DNA from: an uncultured delta proteobacterium | GTDB lineage: Bacteria; Desulfobacterota; Binatia; Binatales; Binataceae | Assembly: GCA_963717045.1 (NCBI GenBank) | Contig: CAVQVD010000010.1 | Coordinates: 342,255 to 406,254, forward strand | DNA: 64,000 nucleotides | Reading direction: 5' to 3' | Part shown: one piece after another, positions 1-38,624 of the stretch | How positions within the stretch are numbered: the stretch's first letter is position 1 | Layout of the letters: every line of letters starts with the position of its first letter | Position numbers and translations under genes: made by a program | Notes under the pieces: generated by a model | Seen by the model: the letters and a program-made list of their open reading frames with translations, nothing else | The model's database searches: none | What the model was told of the DNA's origin: nothing

Positions 1-137
1 AGCTTGAGATCTTAGTAGACTGGCAATAGATCAGTTCGGCCCGGCTTCAATGCCGAACCGAAGCCCAGACGGATACGTATCTTGGTCACGGCAGATTGAT
101 TGGCCCGGCATCCCACTTGTAAGGAGAGGTCACCACG

Positions 138-425
138 ATGGATCGCAAGACGATTACGGGGGCGGTTTTGGCGGCTGCAGTCGGCGCAATGTTTTTAACT
201 ACCCCGGTCCTCGCGCAAACCAGTTCGGGGAATTCAGCGAGCGCGGAAAATGTAAAGTGCGTGGGCGGTAACAGTTGCAAGGGCCAGAGCTCGTGCAAAT
301 CCGCGAGCAACGGTTGCATGGGGCAGAACTCGTGCAAGGGCAAGGGCTGGGTGATGGCCACTTCTGTGAAAATGTGCACCGACAAGGGTGGTAAGCCCGA
401 AAAGGCTCCGACCAACGCGATGTAG
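138..425 (+). CDS. Sec-secreted Cys-rich RiPP precursor, DUF2282/bufferin-like (BufA-like)
   Basis: 95 aa. The N-terminal Sec signal peptide MDRKTITGAVLAAAVGAMFLTTPVLAQT is followed by a core with six Cys in repeated G-x-(N/S)-S-C-K-G motifs (KCVGGNSCKGQSSCKSASNGCMGQNSCKG...KMC). An AAGGAG RBS lies 6 nt upstream. The next gene, 18 nt downstream, is a DUF692 enzyme. Confidence 0.7.
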   Translation: MDRKTITGAVLAAAVGAMFLTTPVLAQTSSGNSASAENVKCVGGNSCKGQSSCKSASNGCMGQNSCKGKGWVMATSVKMCTDKGGKPEKAPTNAM

Positions 426-442
426 GCTGCGAGCCGGTCGCG

Positions 443-1345
443 ATGAATCGATTGGACTTCGCGCGGCTCGGATTCGGCGTTGGATTGCGAACGCCGCATT
501 ACGCGCGGGTTCTCGAGCAATCCCCGACGGATAACGCCACTCCAGTGGGGTGGTTCGAAGTCATCTCGGAAAACTTCATGGTCGAGGGTGGGCGGCCACT
601 CGAGGTGCTCGAGGGCGTGCGTGCCAACTATCCGGTCGTGATGCATGGCGTGTCACTGTCGATCGGCTCGAGCGACCCGCTCAACCGCGACTACTTACGC
701 GCGCTGCGCACGCTCGCCAGTCGCGTCGAGCCGGCCTGGGTCTCCGACCATCTATGCTGGACCGGCATCGGTGGCCGCAATTTGCACGATCTGCTGCCGC
801 TGCCGCACACCGAAGAGACCGTGCATCACGTGGCCGGGCGTATTCGCCAGGTCCAGGACATCCTCGATCGCACGATCGCGATCGAGAATGTATCGAGCTA
901 CCTCGCATTTCGCGCCTCGCGCCTGACCGAGTGGGAGTTCCTGACGGCGGTCGCCGAAGAAGCCGATTGCGCGATCCTGCTCGACGTCAACAACATTTTC
1001 GTGAACGCGTTTAACCATCGCTTCGACCCCGCGCGCTATATCGATAGCGTGCCGGTCGAGCGCGTGGTGCAGTTCCATCTTGCTGGCCATAGCGACCACG
1101 GCAGCTATCTGCTCGACAGCCACGACCATCCGATTCGTCCTGAAGTATGGGCGCTCTACGAGCATGCGGTGAGGCGCTTCGGCCGCGTCGCGACGTTGGT
1201 CGAATGGGACGACAATATTCCGGAATTCGAAGTGCTGGCCGCTGCAGCCGGTGAGGCGCGACGGCGATGCGAATCCGCGCTGGACATGGCCACTCCCATT
1301 CCGCCCGCGTCCAGCGCCCGCATCGGCAGCGCGCGCATAGACTGA
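443..1345 (+). CDS. DUF692/UPF0276 multinuclear non-heme iron oxidase (MNIO, BufB/MbnB-like)
   Basis: 300 aa. The protein matches DUF692 along its whole length: GVGLRTPHY...EVISENF...MHGVSLSIGS...SDHLCW...LHDLLPLPHTEE...IAIENVSSYL...LLDVNNIFVNAFNH...HLAGHSD. It is tightly linked to the upstream Cys-rich precursor. Confidence 0.85.
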   Translation: MNRLDFARLGFGVGLRTPHYARVLEQSPTDNATPVGWFEVISENFMVEGGRPLEVLEGVRANYPVVMHGVSLSIGSSDPLNRDYLRALRTLASRVEPAWVSDHLCWTGIGGRNLHDLLPLPHTEETVHHVAGRIRQVQDILDRTIAIENVSSYLAFRASRLTEWEFLTAVAEEADCAILLDVNNIFVNAFNHRFDPARYIDSVPVERVVQFHLAGHSDHGSYLLDSHDHPIRPEVWALYEHAVRRFGRVATLVEWDDNIPEFEVLAAAAGEARRRCESALDMATPIPPASSARIGSARID

Positions 1346-1420
1346 CCTCCGATCCCGTGCTTGCGCGCGGGGCTTCCGACAGTCCGGACTTGCACATTCG
1401 ATGCAGCGCGGGAAACAGAA

Positions 1421-1470
1421 ACCGGCCCGGCCGCATTATACGAAATAACTGTATGCCGCGGCCGGGACCG
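1421..1470 (+). other. extended imperfect inverted repeat (hairpin) in the 310-bp gap after the MNIO gene
   Basis: ccggcccggccgcat...atgccgcggccgggaccgg forms a stem of about 14 bp with one bulge and an AT-rich 16-nt loop. No U-tract follows. Confidence 0.3.
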
Positions 1471-1656
1471 GGGGGAGAGAGCTTGTCTGAACTGAAAATC
1501 GGTCGGCGTTCCGCAACGTAATCTGCGGCGCGCCAATCTCTCCCTTATAAACCGGACGCGCTGAGACGAAGTTCCATGACGAACCTGTGACATGAATTTA
1601 CCGTCGCGTTTGCCGATAGTTGATCGCGCATGCTGAGTGCTATGTTCTGAAAAGAC

Positions 1657-2757
1657 GTGAGCGCTGCCGCGAACATACGGATTGAGGCCATCAATAGCCC
1701 GCAGGCGTTCGAGGAATTCGCCCGTCTGCCATACCAGGTCTACGCCGATCGCGAGGCGTGGTGGCCTCCAGACGTCCGCAACGAAATCGATCTGCTGGCC
1801 GGCCGCACGTTAACCGCGCCTTATCTCGACCTCCAGCCGTTTTGTGCCTGGAGCAGCGGTCGGCTGGTGGCGCGCGTTAGCGCCGTGATCAACCGCCGCT
1901 ACATCAGCCATTGGGGCCAGCGGCTCGGTCAGCTAATCCATTTCGAGGCGGCAGCGGGTGAGGGCGAAGCGGTCGGCGCGATGCTGACGCGCGCGATGGA
2001 ATGGCTCGCGCGCGGCAAGATGGAATCGGTGCGCAGCGGCTTCGCGGCCTTTCTCGACTATCCCTACGCGATCGACAACTACGGCGGCCTGCCGTCGTTC
2101 CTGCTGCGCGGCAATCCCGAGTACTACCATTGCTACCTCAAGGATGCCGGCTTCGAGACCGAAAAAGGTCAGATCGACTACACCGCCGCGCTGACCCCTG
2201 AGACGCTCGCGCGCTATGCGCGAATGGTCGAGGCGGCACGCTCCGCCGGAGTGGCCGTGACGAGTTGGCGCGAATACGGATTTTTGGCCGCAGTCGATGC
2301 ATGGACGGAGGTCACCAACTCGGCCTTCGCGCGGCATTGGGGATGGAACCCGGTAACTAGCGACGAAGTTCGTCCGATGATGAATCCGCTGCAGGGCACC
2401 CCGGTCGGCGATCTTTCGATGGTCGCGGTGGCCAAACGCGAGGTCGTCGGTGTGGTCTTTTCAGTGCCGGACCTAAGCCCGGCGCTCGCCCAGATTCGCC
2501 CGGGCGCCAAGCTCCATCCCGAGCGCGGTGGCGGCACGCGCGGCGCGCTCATAAATATTGGGGTGCTCGAGGCCGCGCGCGGCAAGGGTGTCGCGCTGGC
2601 GATGGCGGCGCGTTCGTTCACGATCATGGCCAGGAGCGGAATGCGTTACGCCGGCTACACGCTGGTGCTCGACGACAACTGGCCCTCGCGGCGCACCGCG
2701 ACAGCGTTGGGTGCGCGGGCGACCGGCAACTTCGTGACTTACCGACGAGATCTCTAA
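1657..2757 (+). CDS. two-domain GNAT-fold acyltransferase-like protein (hypothetical)
   Basis: 366 aa. The C-terminal region carries a GNAT acetyl-CoA-binding motif (RGKGVALAMAARSF). Overall length and architecture resemble FemAB/BioF2-like double GNAT folds. Family assignment is by pattern only. Confidence 0.4.
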   Translation: MSAAANIRIEAINSPQAFEEFARLPYQVYADREAWWPPDVRNEIDLLAGRTLTAPYLDLQPFCAWSSGRLVARVSAVINRRYISHWGQRLGQLIHFEAAAGEGEAVGAMLTRAMEWLARGKMESVRSGFAAFLDYPYAIDNYGGLPSFLLRGNPEYYHCYLKDAGFETEKGQIDYTAALTPETLARYARMVEAARSAGVAVTSWREYGFLAAVDAWTEVTNSAFARHWGWNPVTSDEVRPMMNPLQGTPVGDLSMVAVAKREVVGVVFSVPDLSPALAQIRPGAKLHPERGGGTRGALINIGVLEAARGKGVALAMAARSFTIMARSGMRYAGYTLVLDDNWPSRRTATALGARATGNFVTYRRDL

Positions 2758-2889
2758 GCAAGAGCGTGAATGGCGAGTTTGGCTGGTTTATTTCGCCTTA
2801 CACCTTGATGGGCGGGATTGGCTGGTGTTAGTGTAGCTCCTCGCTCCTTGCTCCCGCGTGGGGGCCGGAATCCACAAGGAGGCTGCCGC

Positions 2890-3438
2890 GTGCGGCGCTA
2901 CGAAACCATTTTTATTCTTCGCTCCGATCTGGGCGAAACTCAGGTCAAAGATAGCATCAAGCGTTTCGAGGGTCTGGTCGCCACCGGCGGCGGCGAGATG
3001 CTCGAAACCGATGAATGGGGCTTTCGCGAACTCGCCTACCGGATTCACAACGAACGCCGAGGCTATTATGTTCGCCTCGACTACGCTGCCACCGGACCCG
3101 TGATGAACGAGGTGGAGCGCAACCTTAAACTCTCCGACAGCGTGCTGCGCTACCTCTCGGTGCTTCTCGATTCCGAGGTCGATACCGCCAAGGTGCGCGC
3201 CGAAATAGATGCCAGGCTCCATCGCGCGGCCGAAGCAAAGGCCGCCGCCGAGGCCCGCATTGCCGCAGCCGCCGCGGCCGCCGAGCAGGCGGCGCATCCG
3301 AGCGCTCCCGGAGCCGATCTCTCGCCCGATGAGGCGGCCGGCGAGGCTGAAGTAGCGCAAAAAGCGGTGTCCGAACAGCCGGAGGAAGCTGGCTCCGACG
3401 CGGAGGTGAATCCCGCCGGTGAACCGAAACAGGATTGA
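2890..3438 (+). CDS. rpsF: 30S ribosomal protein S6 with acidic Ala/Glu-rich C-terminal tail
   Basis: The GTG start is preceded by an AAGGAGG RBS. The N-terminus RRYETIFILRSDLGE...RELAYRI...GYYV matches the S6 signature. The first gene of the rpsF-priB-rpsR-rplI cluster. Confidence 0.9.
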   Translation: MRRYETIFILRSDLGETQVKDSIKRFEGLVATGGGEMLETDEWGFRELAYRIHNERRGYYVRLDYAATGPVMNEVERNLKLSDSVLRYLSVLLDSEVDTAKVRAEIDARLHRAAEAKAAAEARIAAAAAAAEQAAHPSAPGADLSPDEAAGEAEVAQKAVSEQPEEAGSDAEVNPAGEPKQD

Positions 3439-3727
3439 ACTGTTTGGCAAAGTGACCTGCGCGCCTGAGATGCGGGCCACGCCGACCGGAACTCCGGTGA
3501 TGCGGATCGAGTTGGACTGCGGCGAGGGTCGGGAGCCTTTGAGGCTGGGGGTCGTGATGATAGGGGAGGGCGCGCGCGAAATAGGCGGGCGAATCAGCGC
3601 CGGAGCGGCGGTGAAGGTAACGGGAACGTTGCGCACAGTACGCGGGCGGCTGTGGCCGTCGGCGGCGAGCGGGATCGAAGTGCTGGCGAGCGAGGTGAGC
3701 GAGGTCGCGGCAGGCGCGGGCTTATAG
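3419..3727 (+). CDS. priB: primosomal replication protein PriB / SSB-like OB-fold protein
   Basis: 102 aa. NRIELFGKVTCAPEMRATPTGTPVMRIELDC aligns with the PriB N-terminus. There is no acidic SSB tail. The gene sits between rpsF and rpsR, and its GTG start overlaps the rpsF stop. Confidence 0.7.
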   Translation: MNRNRIELFGKVTCAPEMRATPTGTPVMRIELDCGEGREPLRLGVVMIGEGAREIGGRISAGAAVKVTGTLRTVRGRLWPSAASGIEVLASEVSEVAAGAGL

Positions 3728-3906
3728 GATCGACAATCGGGATTGCCGGGATTTGCGAAAATCGGGTGAGCTTCGCCAGCACTGATCGTCCGACTGTCCA
3801 ATTTCTAAGAATTTGAATTTCTAAGATTTCATAACCATGACCAATTGTTCTGGCGGCTCGCCGCCGACCTTGGACACGATTCCACGCGGGATCCGACGAG
3901 ACGAAA

Positions 3907-4272
3907 ATGGCTGACGAAGAAAGGATGGAGCAGGGGCCCGGACACGGTGGCCATGAGCATGGCCGCGGACGCCCCGGAGGTTCGCGCTCCGACTCCGATC
4001 GCCCCGGCGAGGGCCGTGGTGGCGAGGGCCGGGGCGGCGGGATGCGTCGGCGGCCAGGCGGCGGCCGTCGCAAAGTGTGCCGCTTCTGCGCCGACAAGGC
4101 GCTCAAGGTCGATTACAAGGACGTGCGTACCTTGCAGAACTTCATCACCGAGGGTGGCAAGATTGTACCCAGTCGTACCTCGGGTAATTGCGCGCGCCAT
4201 CAGCGCCAACTTGCGGTCGCGATCAAGCGCGCCCGGGTGATCGCGCTGTTGCCCTTTTCGACCTTGGGATAA
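3907..4272 (+). CDS. rpsR: 30S ribosomal protein S18 (possibly with Gly/Arg/His-rich N-terminal extension; alternative start ATG 4042)
   Basis: The C-terminal 75 aa ([40 protein letters not shown]...[12 protein letters not shown]) is canonical S18. The upstream 45 codons are low-complexity ([13 protein letters not shown]) with high GC3, so the true start is ambiguous. Confidence 0.85.
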
Positions 4273-4291
4273 TGGGGATGACGAGCGAGCG

Positions 4292-5263
4292 TTGAGACGC
4301 GGGCGAATAATCGTCGGGCCGCTGGTAGGTGCGATTCGCGCGGCATTCCTGTCGGCGGCGCTCTATCTGGCAGCGGCCTTAGTGCCCCTGGTTGGCATGA
4401 TGGCTGCGCTGTTCGCGCCCGCGCCGACGCTGCTTTTCTCGGTAGGTTTTGCCCGCGCGCGAGTGCGTGCCGCGGTGGCTATCATGATCGGCGCAGCAGC
4501 GGTCATGGCGCTCGGTGGATGGACTGTGGCACTCGGCTACCTGGTGACCTTCGGTCTCGCAGCGGCCGTGATGTGCGACATGCTCGAGCGGCGCAAGCCC
4601 TTCGAGGCGATCGTGCTAGTGACCGCCGCGGTCGTGCTGGCGGCCAGCGTGATTGCAGCCTTCGCGATGGCTGGGTCGGTAGACGCGGTGGCAAAGGGCG
4701 TCCGCGATGGGCTAACGGCGGGAATGGCGCACGGCCACGACTTTTACAAGATGCTCGGAATCGAGACCGGGATGGCTCAGGAGGCGGAGGCCGGCCTGCT
4801 GGATATTATGCTGCGGCTGTGTCCGGCATTGGTGGCGTTGTGTGCGGGCTTCGGTGCGCTGCTCAATCTGGCGGTGTTTTGGCGGCTGGGAGGCCGGGAG
4901 CGGCTCGACTATCCTCTGTTCGGCGATTTGGCCCGCTGGTCGACGCCAGAATGGCTCATCTGGGTGCTGCTGGCGGCAGGGTTCGGAATGTTCGTTCCAG
5001 TGCCGGCGTTGGCCGTGGTAGCGATGGATGCCTTCGTATGCGTCGCGGCAGTCTATTTTTGCCAAGGCATGGCCATCATGGCCTTCTATTTTAAGACTTT
5101 GGTTATCCCGCCATGGGTCCGGGGGCTAATATATTTTGTTACAATAATCCAGCCGGTGCTGGCGGCTCTGGTGTGCGCGGCCGGTATTTTCGACCTGTGG
5201 GTAGATTTCCGGCGGCTCAAGCCGCCGAGCCAGGAAGCAGGTAGCTTCGGCGATTTTTTTTAG
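4292..5263 (+). CDS. DUF2232 (YybS-like) polytopic membrane protein
   Basis: 323 aa with multiple hydrophobic helices. Its position between rpsR and rplI is conserved for the YybS/DUF2232 family. Probable TTG start. Confidence 0.55.
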   Translation: MRRGRIIVGPLVGAIRAAFLSAALYLAAALVPLVGMMAALFAPAPTLLFSVGFARARVRAAVAIMIGAAAVMALGGWTVALGYLVTFGLAAAVMCDMLERRKPFEAIVLVTAAVVLAASVIAAFAMAGSVDAVAKGVRDGLTAGMAHGHDFYKMLGIETGMAQEAEAGLLDIMLRLCPALVALCAGFGALLNLAVFWRLGGRERLDYPLFGDLARWSTPEWLIWVLLAAGFGMFVPVPALAVVAMDAFVCVAAVYFCQGMAIMAFYFKTLVIPPWVRGLIYFVTIIQPVLAALVCAAGIFDLWVDFRRLKPPSQEAGSFGDFF

Positions 5264-5291
5264 GCGCCGTAAGGATTAAGCAATCCAGTCT

Positions 5292-5741
5292 ATGAACGTG
5301 CAAGTGATTCTCAGTGAGGACGTGCCCAACCTGGGCCGTCCGGGAGACGTGGTTAGGGTGCGCGCCGGCTATGCGCGAAACTATCTGTTGCCGCGCCGAC
5401 TCGCGGTCGAGGCCAACTCCAAGAACCTGCGCGCCTTCGAGCATCAGAAGGGCTTGGCGATGTTGCGGCGTGAGGCGAACAAGGGTCTGGCGGTAAAGCT
5501 CAAGCAACAGCTCGAAGCGTTGACGCTCACGATCGGCGCTAACGCAGGCGAAGAGGGCAAGTTGTTCGGATCGGTGACCAGTATCGATATCGAGCGTGCG
5601 CTGCGCGAGCACGGATTCAATATCGAACGGCGAAAGATAATGTTGGCGGAGCCGATCAAGCAGCTCGGCGAGTTCACCGTTCCGGTGAGGCTCGACCCGG
5701 AGGTTGAAGCTGACGTGAAGCTCACAGTCGCGGCGTCATAA
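5292..5741 (+). CDS. rplI: 50S ribosomal protein L9
   Basis: 149 aa. MNVQVILSEDVPNLGRPGDVVRVRAGYARNYLLPRRLA is the L9 N-domain signature. Confidence 0.92.
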   Translation: MNVQVILSEDVPNLGRPGDVVRVRAGYARNYLLPRRLAVEANSKNLRAFEHQKGLAMLRREANKGLAVKLKQQLEALTLTIGANAGEEGKLFGSVTSIDIERALREHGFNIERRKIMLAEPIKQLGEFTVPVRLDPEVEADVKLTVAAS

Positions 5742-5753
5742 GGCCATCCGGGT

Positions 5754-6392
5754 ATGATGAAACTCTACGATTTCCTGCCCTGCCCATTCGGTCAAAAAGT
5801 GCGGATCGTTCTGGCAGAAAAGAGCCTGACCTACGAGCTCATCCAGATCGATCTAGCCCAAGCCGACCAGCGGCGTCCCGAGTTCCTGCGCCTCAATCCA
5901 TTCGCCCGGGTTCCGGTGCTGGTTGACGAGGACACCACGGTCTACGATTCGACGATCATCGTCGAATATCTCGAAGATGAATACCCGGAGCCGCCGGTCC
6001 TGCCGACTCTGGGAGCGAGCGCGCTGCGTGCGCGAGCGCGGATGTTCGAGGATTTTGCCGACACGTCATTCACGCCGCAGGTCGGACAGCTCATGGCCGA
6101 GATGGCTCGGGCCGAGGGTGACCGCGATCAGGGACGTCTCCAGCGGTTGCATCGTTCGATCGAACGGGCGCTCGATTACCTGAATCACGAACTTACTGGC
6201 CAGCAGTTTCTCGCCGGCGACTTTTCAGTCGCCGACATTGGGTTCGCGCCGCGGATGCTCGTACTGAGCGAACTGGGCCTGGAGGCGAGCACTAATCGCT
6301 CAAACGTCGACGCCTGGATAAAGCGGCTGCTGGAGCGCGCGAGCATCCAATCCCTGCAGGGCGTGACGCTCGAGCCTCTGGCCGGAGTTTGA
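5754..6392 (+). CDS. glutathione S-transferase family protein
   Basis: 212 aa. MKLYDFLPCPFGQKVRIVLAEK...RVPVLVDED matches the GST N-terminal thioredoxin-like domain. Confidence 0.8.
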   Translation: MMKLYDFLPCPFGQKVRIVLAEKSLTYELIQIDLAQADQRRPEFLRLNPFARVPVLVDEDTTVYDSTIIVEYLEDEYPEPPVLPTLGASALRARARMFEDFADTSFTPQVGQLMAEMARAEGDRDQGRLQRLHRSIERALDYLNHELTGQQFLAGDFSVADIGFAPRMLVLSELGLEASTNRSNVDAWIKRLLERASIQSLQGVTLEPLAGV

Positions 6393-6468
6393 CCGTCGGG
6401 ACGCAACGCTCCGAGCGATCGGACACGAAAGCCAGCTATTTTTTACGCGACAATCGCGTGGGAAACGA

Positions 6469-6508
6469 CAGGCGCGCCGTCCGAGTAATGGGCGGCGCGC
6501 CTGCTTTT
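6469..6508 (+). terminator. rho-independent terminator-like hairpin downstream of GST gene (bidirectional candidate)
   Basis: The GC stem caggcgcgccg / cggcgcgcctg (11 bp) has a 13-nt loop and is followed by cTTTTcg. Confidence 0.5.
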
Positions 6509-6619
6509 CGAGATCACGGACGAGGAGCGGGTTCCTAACCTAGACGATCCGTTGTCGGTTTAACAAGGGCTTCGGGGCCGGGTTCGTCAGTTAAAGGGAT
6601 CGCTCCTTAAATTGCTGCA

Positions 6620-6922
6620 CTAGTAAGGTTGATCCTCGCCGAACAGCGGTTCTTCTTCATCGGCCCGGGTCGAGGCTACGCCCGTCGCTCGGTAGAGAAG
6701 CTTTGCAGCGAACAACTTGTTGCCCAGCCGACCCTGCGGCTTGAGCATCCCGCCATGCCTGCGACATCGCGGACAGGCCATCGTGCCGCTCAGCAGGCTC
6801 GCATTCTGTGGGGTGATTCGCAAATCGAAACTGGCCCCACATCCCGGGTTCTGACACAAGGTTCGATAAACGATACCCGGTCGGTCGCCAGTCTTGGTTT
6901 CAGTATTCATCGCAGTTTGCAT
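6620..6922 (-). CDS. small zinc-ribbon-like hypothetical protein
   Basis: 100 aa. Two CxxC-type pairs (CQNPGC ... CPRCRRHG). No recognisable family. Which of several in-frame Met codons is the start is uncertain. Confidence 0.35.
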   Translation of the reverse strand: MQTAMNTETKTGDRPGIVYRTLCQNPGCGASFDLRITPQNASLLSGTMACPRCRRHGGMLKPQGRLGNKLFAAKLLYRATGVASTRADEEEPLFGEDQPY

Positions 6923-12224: not shown

Positions 12225-12707
12225 TTAGGGATTCACAGGCGGCGGCTGACCCTCGTGATACGCCACGTCGAACATCGTGCCGCGAGCGGAGGCGACCGCG
12301 TTAGGAGTGTGAACTTCGAAGTTTGGAGCGCCGGACGGACTAAAGTGAACCAGTGAGCGCACCAATCCGCTCAGCAGAGTCACCTTGGTACTGGCGCGCG
12401 ACCCGTCGGGGTTAAGGGTATCTTGCGTCAGCACAAGAGTGCTCGACTCGTTGAGTTCCAACTGGCTGCCGTCACTGAGTTTGATAGTGACCCGGCTGTT
12501 CGGCCCGGTCGTGAACTTGTCTCCGACCTGAACGCCAGAGCCGTTGGCGGCGGGAATCGACTTGCCAGCCCGCTCGAGGCTGGCAGTGCCGGTGACCTCG
12601 CTGATCGCGCCGGCAGGGGTCTGTGCCCAAGCATGAGGCACCGAAACCAGTAAAACGGCCGCAAAGAAGCTTGCCGACGCCACTATTTGCGTAATTACCT
12701 TCGACAT
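12225..12707 (-). CDS. secreted FecR-domain protein
   Basis: 160 aa with an N-terminal signal peptide. The VQVGDKFTTGPNSRVTIKLSDGSQLEL pattern is FecR-like. Confidence 0.55.
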   Translation of the reverse strand: MSKVITQIVASASFFAAVLLVSVPHAWAQTPAGAISEVTGTASLERAGKSIPAANGSGVQVGDKFTTGPNSRVTIKLSDGSQLELNESSTLVLTQDTLNPDGSRASTKVTLLSGLVRSLVHFSPSGAPNFEVHTPNAVASARGTMFDVAYHEGQPPPVNP

Positions 12708-12807
12708 GCTTTGAGCCTACATTTATTCTTATAACGTGTCTACACATCCGTCCCAAGCAAGCAAAGTCCTAAACTGTCCCAGGCTGCGTGTGTTGTAGGA
12801 AAGCGGC

Positions 12808-13707
12808 CTATGAGGCGGAGCGGCCGGTGAGTCGCGGCACGAGGGCCAGGATGACCAGTGCTATCAACCAGGCCGCCGTGCCGCTGATGATCGGCGGCCG
12901 TCCATAGCCGGCAATCCATGGCGATGGCGAAGCGCCGGGTGTATCGCCAAAGGGCCATAGCTTTGCGCCGACCACCAAGCCGGCATGCAGTCCCATCGAA
13001 AAATAGACGTTGCCGGTCACCAGGAAAGCCTCGCCCAGCGCCAGGCCGAGCAGGAATAATCCGACCAGCGCCGGCAACGCGGCCGCGGGATGGGTCAGTT
13101 GTGCGAGGCTCGCGTAAAGATTGTGAAAGCCGGCGGTTGCGTCGTAGCTTGTCAGATAAAATCGCGCGGGTGAGCGCACCAGGTGCGCCAGCGCATACAC
13201 CACAGAGCTAAGCACCAGCGCGCCGGTGCGCCCGAAGTCCTCGATTATCCCGCCCAGCAAAAAGGCGCGAAAGAATCCTTCCTCGATTAGTGCGATCAGG
13301 ATTGCCCCGGCGACGTACTTGGGCGCGCGCGCCAATGCCTCGCCGACTCGCATCTCAACGCGGCCGCCGAATGCCGCGCCGAGTGCGAGCAGAATCGCGA
13401 TCACCACCGCCGCGACCAGCAATCCGCGGACAAGCGCTCCCAGATTATCCAGCGGACGGGCGAAGCCACGCCGCAACAGACGCGCGACTCCCAGTTGACG
13501 CGCCCACAGCGTCAGCATCAGCGCCAGCGTGACCATCACCGTGCGGTCGAAAATGCGCGGGAAGGGAAAATGATAGCCGGCGCGGGCGAGCGCGATTGCG
13601 GCGAACGGCGCGATGAGCGCGGCTGCGGCGGCTGCTAGCAAAAGGGCGATCGTTACTCTCAGCGTGAAGGGCATTTTGCTATGCGTCGGCGTTCGGCTGG
13701 TGCACAA
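12808..13707 (-). CDS. CPBP family intramembrane metalloprotease (CAAX protease/Abi)
   Basis: 299 aa and polytopic. The IEEGFFRAFLLG (EExxxR) and HL motifs are present. Confidence 0.7.
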   Translation of the reverse strand: MCTSRTPTHSKMPFTLRVTIALLLAAAAAALIAPFAAIALARAGYHFPFPRIFDRTVMVTLALMLTLWARQLGVARLLRRGFARPLDNLGALVRGLLVAAVVIAILLALGAAFGGRVEMRVGEALARAPKYVAGAILIALIEEGFFRAFLLGGIIEDFGRTGALVLSSVVYALAHLVRSPARFYLTSYDATAGFHNLYASLAQLTHPAAALPALVGLFLLGLALGEAFLVTGNVYFSMGLHAGLVVGAKLWPFGDTPGASPSPWIAGYGRPPIISGTAAWLIALVILALVPRLTGRSAS

Positions 13708-35030: not shown

Positions 35031-38000
35031 CTAACTGGCGAGCGACCCGGCTGGGCGGCTCGGCTCGGACTCCAACTTTTCACAGGCCGCCAGGGCCTGC
35101 AAGACGCCGTCGAGTTGCTCGAACAACAGTTCGTAGTTGTTGCCCGAGTCGCTCGCGCCGGTTTCGATTCGCACCACCACCTGGAACGATGGAGTGAGGC
35201 GCATGCGGCGGCGGTTGGCCTCGATCAGTGCGGTCAGCCGGGCAGTGTCCAGTGGCGCGTCCTGATGAAACTTCACTTCCAGCTGGTCGCCCTTGAGGAT
35301 CGCGCTCAGCATCATCATTTCGCGCATCCGGCGGCGCAGATCCATCGCGGCCAGCAGGTTGTCGACCAGCGTCGGCGGCGGCCCGAAGCGATCGCGCATC
35401 TCCTCGCGCAGCGCGTCGAGGTCGGCCCGTGAGGCCGCCCGCGCCATCCGCCGGTACAGCACCAGCCGCTCGCCCTCGTCGGGCACGAAGCTGTCGGGGA
35501 CGTAGGCCGGGATGCCGAGCCGGAGTTCGGGCTCGAAGTCGGGACGCAGCGGCTCGCCGCGCAGCTCGTGGATCGCCTGCTCCATCATTTCCGTGTACAG
35601 CTCGAAGCCGACCGCCGTTATCTGGCCCGACTGCTCGCGCCCGAGCAGGTTACCGGCGCCGCGATGCTCGAGGTCGCGAATTGCGAGTTTGAAGCCGCCG
35701 CCGCTTTCAGTCTCGACCAACTCGCGCAGGGCGTCGATGCGCTTCTTGGCGTCGCGCGTGATGATGTGCTCGCCCGGGATCAGCAGATAGGCGTAGGCCT
35801 TCTGGCGCGAGCGTCCGACCCGGCCGCGCAGCTGGTAGAGCTGGGCCAGGCCGAAATGATCGGCACGGTTGATGATCATGCGTGTTGGCGTTGGGAATGT
35901 CGAGTCCCGACTCGATGATCGCCGAGCACACCAGCAGGTTGACGCGGTTCTCGATGAACTCGCGCATCACGTTCTCGAGCTGGCGCTCCTTCATCTGGCC
36001 ATGCGCGACGGCGACTTTCGCCTCGGGCACGATCGCGCGCAGATGGCGTGCGACGTAGTCGATGTTCTCGACGCGGTTGTGCACGAAAAACACCTGCCCC
36101 GAGCGGTTGAGCTCGCGCATGATGACTTCGCGCAGCAGGCCGTCGTCGAAATGCGCGACGAAGGTGCGGATCGCCTGGCGATCCGGCGGCGGCGTCTGGA
36201 TCACGCTCAGGTCGCGGATCCCGAGCATCGCCATGTGCAGCGTCCGCGGAATCGGGGTCGCGGTCAGGGTCAGTACCTCGACCAGCTTGCGTAGCCGCTT
36301 CATGCGCTCCTTGTCGGCCACCCCGAAGCGATGCTCCTCGTCGATGATCAGCAGGCCGAGCCGCGGAAATTCGACGTCGTCCTGGAGCAGGCGATGAGTC
36401 CCGACCACTATATCGACCTTGCCGCGGCGCACGTCCTCGATCACCGCCTTGTTCTCGCGCGGGTTGCGAAAGCGCGAGACCATCTCGATCCGTACCGGAT
36501 AGCCCTCGAAGCGCTTGCGCATCGTGTTCCAGTGCTGCTCGGCGAGCACCGTGGTCGGCACCAGCATCGCCACCTGCCGCCCGTCCATCACCGCGATGAA
36601 TGCGGCGCGCAGCGCCACTTCGGTCTTGCCGAAGCCGGCGTCGCCGCAAATCAGCCGGTCCATCGGTTTGGGCCGGCACATGTCGCGCACGACCTCGTCG
36701 ATCGCGGCGAGCTGGTCGGGAGTCTCCTCGAATTCGAAGCCCTCGGCGAATTCTGCATAATCAGCGCCCGGATGGGCGAAGGCGTGGCCCTCCATCACCT
36801 CGCGCGCGGCATAGATGTCGAGCAGCTCGGAGGCCATCGCGAGTACCGCCTCTTTGGTGCGCCGCTTGACCCTGTCCCATGAGCCGCTGCCGAGCTTGTC
36901 GAGCTTGGGTTCCTGGCCGTCGCCGCCAATGTAGCGCTGGACCAGGTTGATCCGCTCGACCGGCACATACATCGCGTCGCTGCCCGCGTACTCCAGCGCA
37001 AGGAAGTCGCCCTCGGTGCCGGCGACCTTCATGTGGCGCAGTCCCCGGTAGCGCCCGATGCCGTGATCGATATGCACCACCACATCGTCGGGCTTCAGCT
37101 CCTCGAGATTGAGCAAAGCGCCTTTGGAAACCGGCCGCGAGCGCCGCCGAGCGCGCGGCTCGCCAAAGATGTCTTCCTCGCTGTAAACGTAGAGCCCGTC
37201 GGCCTGCAGCACCACGCCGGAAGAGACCTCGCCCTCCATGATCGCTGGCCGAAAGTCGGGTGCCTCCATCAGCGCGCCGAAGCTCTTGCATTCGGTGTTG
37301 ATCGAGGATCGTAGGCCTCCAGATGGCGGCGCAGGCGCGCGGCCTGGCTCGCTCCCTCGACCACCATCAGCGCGCGGCCCTGTCCGCGTTGCACTTCGCG
37401 CAGTTCGGTAGCGAGAGGCTCGAAAGTAGGCGGTGTGCGCGGCCCGGTGAGCGTACTGGCCCCAAGCTTGAGGCTCGGCTGAGACTTTACCTCGATCGGT
37501 GGCGCCCATCCTTCGCGCGGTGCGGTCACGGTGACCAGCGAGCCGACTTCGACTGCGGTCATCGCGCCCAGCGCGTCTTCGAATTCCTCGGCGCCGAGGT
37601 AGAGCGATTCTGGTGGCGGATAGAATGAGGGCTTGCTCTGCGCGGTCTCGGCTTCGGCGGCAGTTTGCTCGGCAACCCTGAGCGCTTCGGCGAGCACGCG
37701 TCCCGGCTCGACTATCCAGACCACCGTGTCGGCGGGCAGATAGCTGAAGACTGTGTCGAGAGGGCGACCGAACAGCAGCGGAGTCAGCAGCTCGGCGCCC
37801 GGAAACAAAAGCCCGTTGGTCAGCGAATCGCTCAGCTCCACCAGTTCCTTGCGCACCAGGCCGATCTCGCTCGCGCGCACCGCAACACGCTCGCGCACCT
37901 TGTCGTCCTTGAGCGCCAGCGGGGGCACCAGGCGCGTGCGGATCACGATCGCCTCGCGCACCTCGCCGAGTGAACGCTGAGAGGCGGGATCGAACTGGCG

Positions 38001-38624
38001 TACCGAGGTGACGATGTCCTCCTCCAGCTCGATCCGCATCGGGTTGTGGTACAGCGGCGAGAAGATGTCGATAATTCCGCCGCGCACGCTGAAATCACCA
38101 GGCTCCTCGGTCTGCGGCACCCGCTGATAGCCGGCCGCGCCGAGCGCGTCGATCAGCGCGTCAAGATCGAGCGTATCGGCGGCGGCGATTCGCATCACCG
38201 AAGATTCGAACACCGGCCGTGGCAGCGTCCGCATCAGCAGTGCCTCCGCCGAGGCGACGAGCAACGGCGCTTCGCCGCGCAGCGCCGCGTACAGAGCCGC
38301 AAGCTGTGCGGCCTGCGTATGCGGCGGCGGCGAAAGATGGGCGAATGGCTTCAGCTCCCAGGCGGGCAGCAGATGCACGCGGCGGGCGAGCGAATCGCGC
38401 TCGGGCGGCTCGTCGAGAAAAAACCCGACCTCGCCGGCCAGGGCTTCAGCTTCGCGCGCGAGCGGTGTCACCACCAGTATTGGGCGCGAAAGGCTGAGCG
38501 CGGCCTCGCGCAGCATGAGCGCTCCCGCCGCGCCCTTAAGCCCCATCAGCGGAAAGCGGCGCGCGCCGCCGCTGTCCAGGCGCGCCCTAAGCTCGCTCGC
38601 CGCCTCTTTCAGACTCCGTTCCAA
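35031..38624 (-). pseudogene. mfd: transcription-repair coupling factor Mfd, split into three frames (shifts near 37300 and 35880)
   Basis: Three ORFs cover the N-terminal UvrB-homology region (451 aa), the RecG-like helicase core (600 aa, ...GLDIPNANT) and the C-terminal domains (282 aa, MIINRADHFGLAQLYQLRGRVGRS). Together they are collinear with an Mfd of about 1150 aa. Confidence 0.75.

Follow-up and report, generated by a model that had tools for sequence, protein, structure and literature searches.

In this study we focus on a bufferin-type locus at the beginning of a 64,000-nucleotide stretch of DNA, hereafter the window (positions 342,255 to 406,254 of contig CAVQVD010000010.1, assembly GCA_963717045.1). 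Bufferins and the related "captophorins" are among the most numerous classes of peptides that are made on ribosomes and modified after translation (RiPPs), with more than 20,000 biosynthetic gene clusters (BGCs) catalogued; the Buf2 bufferin systems are described in Leprevost et al. 2024 (PMC11626156) and Antoine et al. 2025. The locus is a two-gene bufferin-2 operon of an uncultured soil bacterium from the Binataceae (Binatota), in which bufA2 would encode a Sec-exported precursor with six cysteines and bufB its maturase, a multinuclear non-haem iron oxidase (MNIO). Two features set it apart from the canonical BGC: it has no DUF2063 partner gene in cis, and it lies next to a pair of genes for an extracytoplasmic function (ECF) sigma factor and an anti-sigma factor. 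A scan of species-representative genomes, from which 80 loci were retained out of at least 568 confirmed relatives, provided the comparison set, whose members are designated by L numbers. Nearly all 80 are titled Binataceae, Binatia, Binatus or the older "delta proteobacterium", and four bear other labels of metagenome-assembled genomes (MAGs).

The first gene, bufA2 (138..425, + strand), encodes a bufferin-2 precursor of 95 amino acids and is preceded by a Shine-Dalgarno sequence, AAGGAGAGG (121..129, + strand), read from the sequence 8 nt before the ATG at 138. The N-terminus of the protein, likewise as read, consists of the basic MDRK, a hydrophobic core and a cleavage-type site between VLA and Q, and is Sec signal peptide-like; from these features and the family description, the signal peptide is placed at about residues 1-27 (nt 138-218, + strand). 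There are exactly six cysteines, five of them within VKC-VGGNSC-KGQSSC-KSASNGC-MGQNSC-KG and the sixth in KMC-TDKGG. All six align with those of the homologues in the 80 loci and are kept in every BufC-less orthologue. The NCBIfam profile NF050166 (Cu_RiPP_BufA2 equivalog, titled "BufA2 family periplasmic bufferin-type metallophore") matches residues 9-86 of 95 with 78.1 bits, above its cut-off of 60. The original prediction, made from the letters alone, had already picked out a six-cysteine protein of 95 residues with a Sec signal starting at 138. Of the two kinds of profile against which the precursor was checked, the NCBIfam BufA2 model passed, and Pfam DUF2282, the Buf1 signature, gave no match at E <= 1, as expected for a Buf2 precursor. 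The view that the six-cysteine repeats differ from the bufferin pattern has to be dropped, as six cysteines in C-K-G repeats are the canonical Buf2 (BUF_6/12Cys) pattern (PMC12452194).

The second gene, bufB (443..1345, + strand), is read in the same direction, its start lying 18 nt beyond the stop codon of bufA2 with 17 bases in between, and encodes a single-domain MNIO of 300 amino acids. It is matched by NF050167 (MNIO_BufB equivalog, titled "MNIO family bufferin maturase") with 371.4 bits against a cut-off of 310, over profile positions 1-261 of 262, and by PF05114 with 364.9 bits over residues 11-274; close Binataceae homologues already bear the name "MNIO family bufferin maturase" at NCBI. 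Both window proteins are thus members of already curated families, which bears out the prediction of a full-length DUF692 MNIO closely following the precursor and, with it, of a bufferin-type RiPP locus. A family profile search found no RiPP recognition element (RRE) or winged helix-turn-helix (wHTH) domain fused to BufB. The motifs HGVS, SDHLC, ENV, LLDxNN, HLAGH, DxHDHP and EWDD are all present, their residues being of metal-ligand type in a TIM-barrel active site, with the individual iron ligands assigned by homology to MbnB and TglH; the closest solved structure is 3BWW.

Of 93 positions whose residue is shared by at least 97% of 80 homologues, window BufB retains 92. The exception is D36G (window 550-552), where at least 97% of the 80 homologues have the Asp of a DWFE motif; an independent Logan sample contains the identical protein, so the substitution is regarded as real and not as an assembly error. 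It directly follows a clade-specific insertion of 5-10 residues at about residues 27-36 (SPTDNATPVG; 523..552, + strand), identified in the alignment of the loci. This insertion is common to all BufC-less loci, including L012, and absent from all BufC-containing loci.

The missing gene is bufC. A hidden Markov model (HMM) of BufC, built from 47 Binataceae sequences and applied with --max to all six translated frames of the 64-kb window, gave no BufC/DUF2063 match at E < 10, so that the predicted absence of a DUF2063 partner in cis stands. In sister loci a DUF2063 open reading frame (ORF) of 269-310 amino acids overlaps the MNIO stop codon and fills the interval that corresponds in the window to an intergenic gap of 311 nt (1346..1656, + strand). 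The ORFs after related MNIOs match PF09836 (DUF2063) with 55-61 bits against a cut-off of 27.2, and the HvfC model below its cut-off (39-62 bits against 142). Since no such DUF2063 and RRE gene adjoins bufB in the window, the locus is not a canonical bufABC cluster, although both its proteins are family members. DoxX is absent too, the best tblastn hit in the window with two Binataceae DoxX proteins as queries having E = 2.4. This absence had been noted in the original prediction as well, but it is not unusual: DoxX is dispensable for Buf1 (bufD1), and the Caulobacter buf2 operon does without it (PMC11626156).

The gap itself, which ranges from 16 to 357 nt among BufC-less relatives, was searched for a remnant of bufC, and the six-frame BufC HMM found none; with synonymous sites saturated from one clade to the other (dS > 1.3), traces at the DNA level are not expected. 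A small ORF within this interval acting as a PME-type-2 partner was also considered and rejected, given the 16-357 nt length range with indels that are not multiples of three. As foreseen, the gap contains a strong GC-rich hairpin (1422..1471, + strand; -33.8 kcal/mol, z = -5.2 against shuffles), whose sequence is conserved in L003, L004, L006, L007, L009 and L012. No U-tract lies 3' of it, it has no Rfam match, and it is not a dispersed repeat within the window. A known or covarying RNA is not supported, only one of 16 pairs, with a positive covariation term, being compensatory; it is possible that the hairpin is a factor-independent terminator or an mRNA-stabilising element for bufA2B.

As the window begins only 137 nt before bufA2, the locus might be an ordinary bufABC(D) operon cut by the window edge, with bufC or bufD immediately upstream, as the original prediction had allowed. 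The relatives that extend past this edge argue otherwise. The JGI contig L089, 97.6% identical over window 2-5688 (5.7 kb), extends about 610 nt further upstream and carries there, 284 nt from bufA2 and in the opposite orientation, an ECF sigma gene within which the contig ends. In L003, L005, L008, L009 and L085 a divergent ECF sigma gene also lies upstream of bufA2, followed, where the contig reaches, by an anti-sigma-like gene. The sigma proteins match Sigma70_r2 and r4_2 above cut-off, and the anti-sigma-like protein, of about 290 residues, matches zf-HC2 with 18.8 bits, below cut-off. Beyond the anti-sigma gene, close relatives have purF, purL and purQ, and the BufC HMM finds no match within +-10 kb of their buf loci. 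The ECF sigma gene upstream in L089 and the close relatives refutes a partner hidden behind the edge, and we give this explanation practically no credence.

The same comparison points to a promoter. A motif of ECF-sigma type, GAACC (55-59) and CGTAT (76-80) separated by 16 nt (55..80, + strand), lies at a conserved position upstream of bufA2. GAACC-N16-CGTAT is conserved in the BufC-less loci L003, L007, L009 and L013 and in the near-identical L089, with a variant in L008, and is a putative ECF promoter of bufA2. The divergent sigma/anti-sigma pair just past the window edge would probably drive expression through it.

Among the 80 retained loci, bufC directly follows the MNIO gene in 65, and the loci share a conserved block: purQ-purL-purF, then anti-sigma and ECF sigma genes in reverse orientation, bufA2 bufB bufC, and a gene for a GNAT acyltransferase-like protein. 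In ten loci (L003-L010, L012 and L013), as well as in the window, L089 and L085, this block is present except for bufC. The MNIO tree places these BufC-less, GNAT-linked loci in a single clade, with L012 basal and L085 extending the clade, and the architecture spans at least 12 lineages. The shared BufB insertion behaves in the alignment as a synapomorphy of this clade. The distribution across the loci shows bufC to be ancestrally present at this site, and the simplest reading of it is one ancient deletion in the ancestor of the window's clade.

The remaining two genes are maintained. By pairwise NG86, dN/dS in the BufC-less clade is 0.166 for bufA2, 0.154 for bufB and 0.100 for the GNAT gene (dS ~0.4-0.55), compared with 0.145, 0.094 and 0.098, respectively, in a BufC-containing clade of similar divergence (dS ~0.5-0.6). 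bufA2 and bufB are therefore under purifying selection without bufC in cis: dN/dS is low, all six cysteines are kept and the metal-ligand-type motifs of BufB are intact. Only four BufB substitutions are fixed in the BufC-less clade, and the loops equivalent to the partner-binding loops L1 and L3 of TglH (window residues ~45-53 and ~148-163) show the same degree of conservation as those of BufC-containing loci. A locally relaxed segment, residues 16-45, corresponds to the alpha1 region and carries the insertion. Amino-acid diversity there is 0.286 in the BufC-less clade against 0.032 in the BufC-containing clade of similar dS for residues 16-30, and 0.230 against 0.108 for residues 31-45. The segment may mark a lost partner interface but is no proof of one: the TglH-type contact loops are unchanged and the alpha1 region alone is relaxed.

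The clade described above is not the only place where bufC has gone. In L067 it was lost separately from the window's clade, L031 has an orphan MNIO, and in L075 (5848-8453) a gene for a glyoxalase/VOC protein of 166 residues (PF00903, 81.5 bits) occupies the bufC site between the MNIO and GNAT genes; these are other, independent losses or replacements of bufC. The BufA2 of L075 lacks Cys IV (TASSPGPGQNSC). Two JGI metagenome contigs of a related Binataceae lineage go further: L087 (7140-7460) and L088 (1432-1752) have an intact six-cysteine bufA2 beside the GNAT gene, with sigma and anti-sigma genes kept, and neither an MNIO nor a BufC HMM match within +-8 kb. Their GNAT proteins are 81% identical to that of the window. 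Taken with the BufC-less clade, these stand-alone precursors complete a series of reduction steps: ABC, AB and finally A.

Such a series raises the alternative that the window locus is itself reduced or repurposed, BufA2 being exported unmodified or partly modified as a periplasmic protein that binds metal through cysteine thiolates, and BufB being kept for another role or on its way out. L087 and L088, which lost bufB too and keep bufA2 intact under the same sigma/anti-sigma pair, are in keeping with this, as are the independent events in L067, L075 (VOC/glyoxalase gene, Cys IV lost) and L031, and the landscape paper deems unmodified stand-alone precursors possible. A bufB dN/dS of 0.154 over dS 0.5-1.3, with 92 of 93 invariant residues, is however not the signature of a decaying gene, and its position 18 nt after bufA2 suggests co-translation as a unit. 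We thus regard a reduced or repurposed locus as rather improbable.

Other rearrangements were seen around related loci. A HIT-family gene (PF01230, 67 bits) lies between bufA2 and bufB in L035 (9590-9988), and a similar bufA2-bufB spacing of about 500 nt occurs in L046, L050, L061, L062, L065 and L069. In the window (2757-5741) and L089 the GNAT gene is directly followed by rpsF-priB/ssb-rpsR-DUF2232-rplI. In L087 (9098-14331) a DUF4149 gene and a three-subunit cluster of xanthine-dehydrogenase type (Fer2, MoCoBD, FAD_binding_5) stand between the GNAT gene and the S18/L9 genes, and a xanthine-dehydrogenase-type cluster also follows the GNAT gene in L085 (9107-14536). The presence of this cluster in L087 and L085 and not in the window points to a second deletion or rearrangement beside the buf locus of the window's lineage.

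The GNAT gene (1657..2757, + strand, GTG start) encodes 366 amino acids. PF00583 matches weakly, in the C-terminal half (21.5 bits, residues 255-352). An AlphaFold2 model (pLDDT 82.5, pTM 0.82) retrieves with Foldseek the tandem GNATs 2WPW (E = 3.5e-13), 7Q3A (TM 0.62-0.63) and MshD, at TM 0.54-0.63 overall, and also a glucosamine N-acetyltransferase. The model thus supports two GNAT-fold domains in one chain, in agreement with the two-domain GNAT-like acyltransferase predicted after the gap. Every named match among the top 120 homologues is from Binataceae or Binatus, to which the family appears restricted. Immediately before the GTG start lies a block conserved in L003-L013 (1625-1656; consensus GATAGTTAACCGCGCGCGGGCAATGCTAGTCTTC), which may be a promoter or 5' leader of the GNAT gene.

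This protein had also been put forward as an alternative partner of the MNIO, and one could imagine that it replaces BufC or adds an acyl modification, since its gene comes next downstream in the same orientation and is conserved beside buf loci across Binataceae. The comparison gives little room for such a role. Where loci contain bufC, the gene follows it in the corresponding position and is of equal length, with an omega of 0.10 in both groups; being present with or without bufC, it is not a BufC substitute. Between it and bufB lies the hairpin, a conserved block of its own stands upstream of it, and in several loci, such as L065 and L072, it lies 2-4 kb away or elsewhere. Its tandem-GNAT fold has no similarity to RRE or DUF2063. 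Linkage as a sign of shared function was rejected, as clustering showed the upstream pur genes to be equally syntenic. The GNAT gene is a conserved syntenic neighbour that probably does not belong to the bufferin module, and a partner or modifying role for it seems very unlikely. What remains of the interpretation first proposed is its core, a bufferin-type locus without a partner in cis; its points on DoxX, the cysteine pattern, a GNAT partner and an upstream partner do not.

How, then, could the two genes work? By analogy with characterised bufferins, BufB would convert cysteines of the precursor to 5-thiooxazoles in the cytoplasm, and the modified BufA2 would be exported to bind excess copper in the periplasm; it is on this analogy that thiooxazole chemistry and copper binding are ascribed to the window BufA2. 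BufB1 and BufC1 are both required for modification in vivo and in vitro, HvfB needs HvfC, which, and not the MNIO, binds the precursor, and PME1 partners are almost always encoded beside MNIOs. We lean, with modest confidence, towards a BufC that comes in trans from a paralogous bufA2BC operon at another place in the genome.

Several observations argue for such a trans partner. The MAG MFD04434.bin.1.44 carries a BufC-less locus (L008) and, on another contig, a complete bufA2BC operon (L015), and several other Binataceae MAGs carry two or three buf2 loci. Operons of the L015 type are the closest BufC-containing relatives of the window MNIO, at about 80% identity, among the best 80 of at least 568 relatives. 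The conserved L1/L3-equivalent loops, the mere four clade-fixed substitutions and the lack of an RRE-replacing domain in BufB are also counted in its favour. In L087 and L088, where bufA2 stands alone under the same sigma, trans enzymes would be needed if the peptide is modified at all. The signal peptides of L015-type BufA2 and window BufA2 are 89% identical and the cores 56-59%, whereas in the syntenic sister clade the signal peptide is 33-48% identical and core identity is equal. This similarity was downgraded as support for a shared BufC, because Buf1 can be modified in E. coli without its signal peptide, although preliminary evidence from the same group suggests that this peptide contributes to recognition.

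Other points weigh against a BufC in trans. For the window organism itself we infer it, the DUF2063 search having covered the 64-kb window, and only one of the ten BufC-less representative genomes has a second close buf2 operon among the 80 loci retained of at least 568 relatives. The complete operons L015 (7279-9351), L083 (2359-4237) and L084 (2208-4187) are preceded by a divergent gene for a PAS and sigma-54-activator protein, and since the paralogous operon is under a sigma-54 activator, its co-expression with the ECF-controlled locus is not guaranteed. Constraint on bufB is mildly relaxed (omega 0.154 against 0.094 in the BufC-containing clade), the relaxation being concentrated in the alpha1 segment around the insertion, and helices alpha1 and alpha2 of MbnB contact the partner in MbnBC. 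The literature searched contains no experiment on any Binataceae bufferin. As a side observation, L015-type operons are followed by alpha/beta-hydrolase and glutathione S-transferase genes, and L015 has a DoxX gene at 6180-6740, about 3 kb away.

Part of this evidence would also fit an MNIO that has become independent of a partner, the clade's BufB installing thiooxazoles on the Sec-signal BufA2 with no DUF2063 or RRE protein anywhere in the genome. The BufC-less architecture is stable, and under purifying selection, over 12 lineages or more; among the 80 loci retained, nine of the ten representative genomes show no further close operon; and the insertion and the relaxed residues 16-45 fall in the segment corresponding to alpha1, which contacts the partner in MbnBC. 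Moreover, MovX works without a partner, and ChrI is reported dispensable (PMC12452194). Yet the three characterised thiooxazole/oxazolone systems for Sec-signal precursors all need a PME1 partner, HvfB fails to bind its substrate by itself, and window BufB has no extra domain, unlike MovX with its wHTH. Only four substitutions are clade-fixed, and the L1/L3-equivalent loops are unchanged. Genome-wide absence of DUF2063 is very rare, affecting one of 864 complete Buf2 genomes with an MNIO, and the paralogue sampling amounts to 80 of at least 568 relatives. Partner independence therefore appears unlikely, if still worth keeping in mind, and a trans BufC remains the reading we prefer.

Elsewhere in the window, mfd, the gene for the transcription-repair coupling factor (35031-38624, - strand), is broken up into three overlapping ORFs whose frames differ and which encode UvrB_inter, CarD_TRCF_RID with DEAD and Helicase_C, and the TRCF domain; the split implies two frameshifts, in a pseudogene or as assembly indel errors. 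At 12225-13707 (- strand) a gene for a secreted FecR-domain protein (PF04773, 61.7 bits) adjoins one for an Rce1-like membrane protein of the CAAX protease family (PF02517, 45.8 bits).

Our work documents a stepwise reduction of a RiPP locus (ABC, AB, A) and the association of genes for an ECF sigma and an anti-sigma factor with a Buf2 operon. The clade offers a natural comparison, as bufC is present in some orthologous loci and missing from others and a complete paralogue is closely related, and a locus with both remaining genes under selection is a natural test of the enzyme's need for a helper. If BufC acts in trans, this would be an ordinary bufferin locus in an under-studied phylum, and partner proteins would be shared between operons, which bears on how BGC boundaries are called in genome mining. 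If the MNIO is partner-independent, a bare MNIO domain would recognise its substrate unaided, as the first partner-independent bufferin-type MNIO, and the alpha1 insertion and relaxed segment would mark an abandoned or remodelled partner surface.

Among known systems, the closest in outline is the Buf2 operon bufA2-bufB2-bufC2 of Caulobacter vibrioides (CCNA_03001-02999; PMC11626156), which has, like the window, a Sec-signal six-cysteine precursor gene followed by a DUF692 MNIO gene, and no DoxX. It is under SigF, and ECF-sigma control is likely for the window too. The window differs in having no bufC after bufB and in its host phylum, Binatota, as well as in the ECF sigma factor and zf-HC2-like (not NrsF) anti-sigma factor encoded beside operons of its type; sigma/anti-sigma genes have been reported for Buf1 BGCs and not for Buf2 BGCs (PMC12452194). 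Nearer still by descent are the sister Binataceae operons bufA2-bufB-bufC beside the GNAT gene (L020, L023, L039), whose flanks (pur genes, sigma/anti-sigma and GNAT) are orthologous to those at the window locus. These sister loci and the paralogous, sigma-54-controlled L015, L011 and L083 have MNIOs 65-80% identical to that of the window and the same precursor architecture, but keep the DUF2063 gene (269-310 amino acids) overlapping the MNIO stop codon where the window clade has a non-coding gap of 16-357 nt, together with the BufB insertion.

Stand-alone precursors and genomes with an excess of MNIOs, such as Legionella pneumophila subsp. fraseri with seven MNIO and six DUF2063 genes (PMC12452194), resemble the window in having an incomplete enzyme set amid several buf loci, with modification in trans implied. 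Unlike these cases, the window's combination of precursor and MNIO without a partner is conserved over many species, and purifying selection on it has been shown. Finally, MovX, from a methanobactin-like BGC of Vibrio, is likewise an MNIO without a partner gene in its operon, but it has an additional winged-helix domain, which may stand in for the partner, and performs C-terminal amidation on a precursor without a signal peptide, whereas window BufB, of the bufferin subfamily, consists of the catalytic domain alone.

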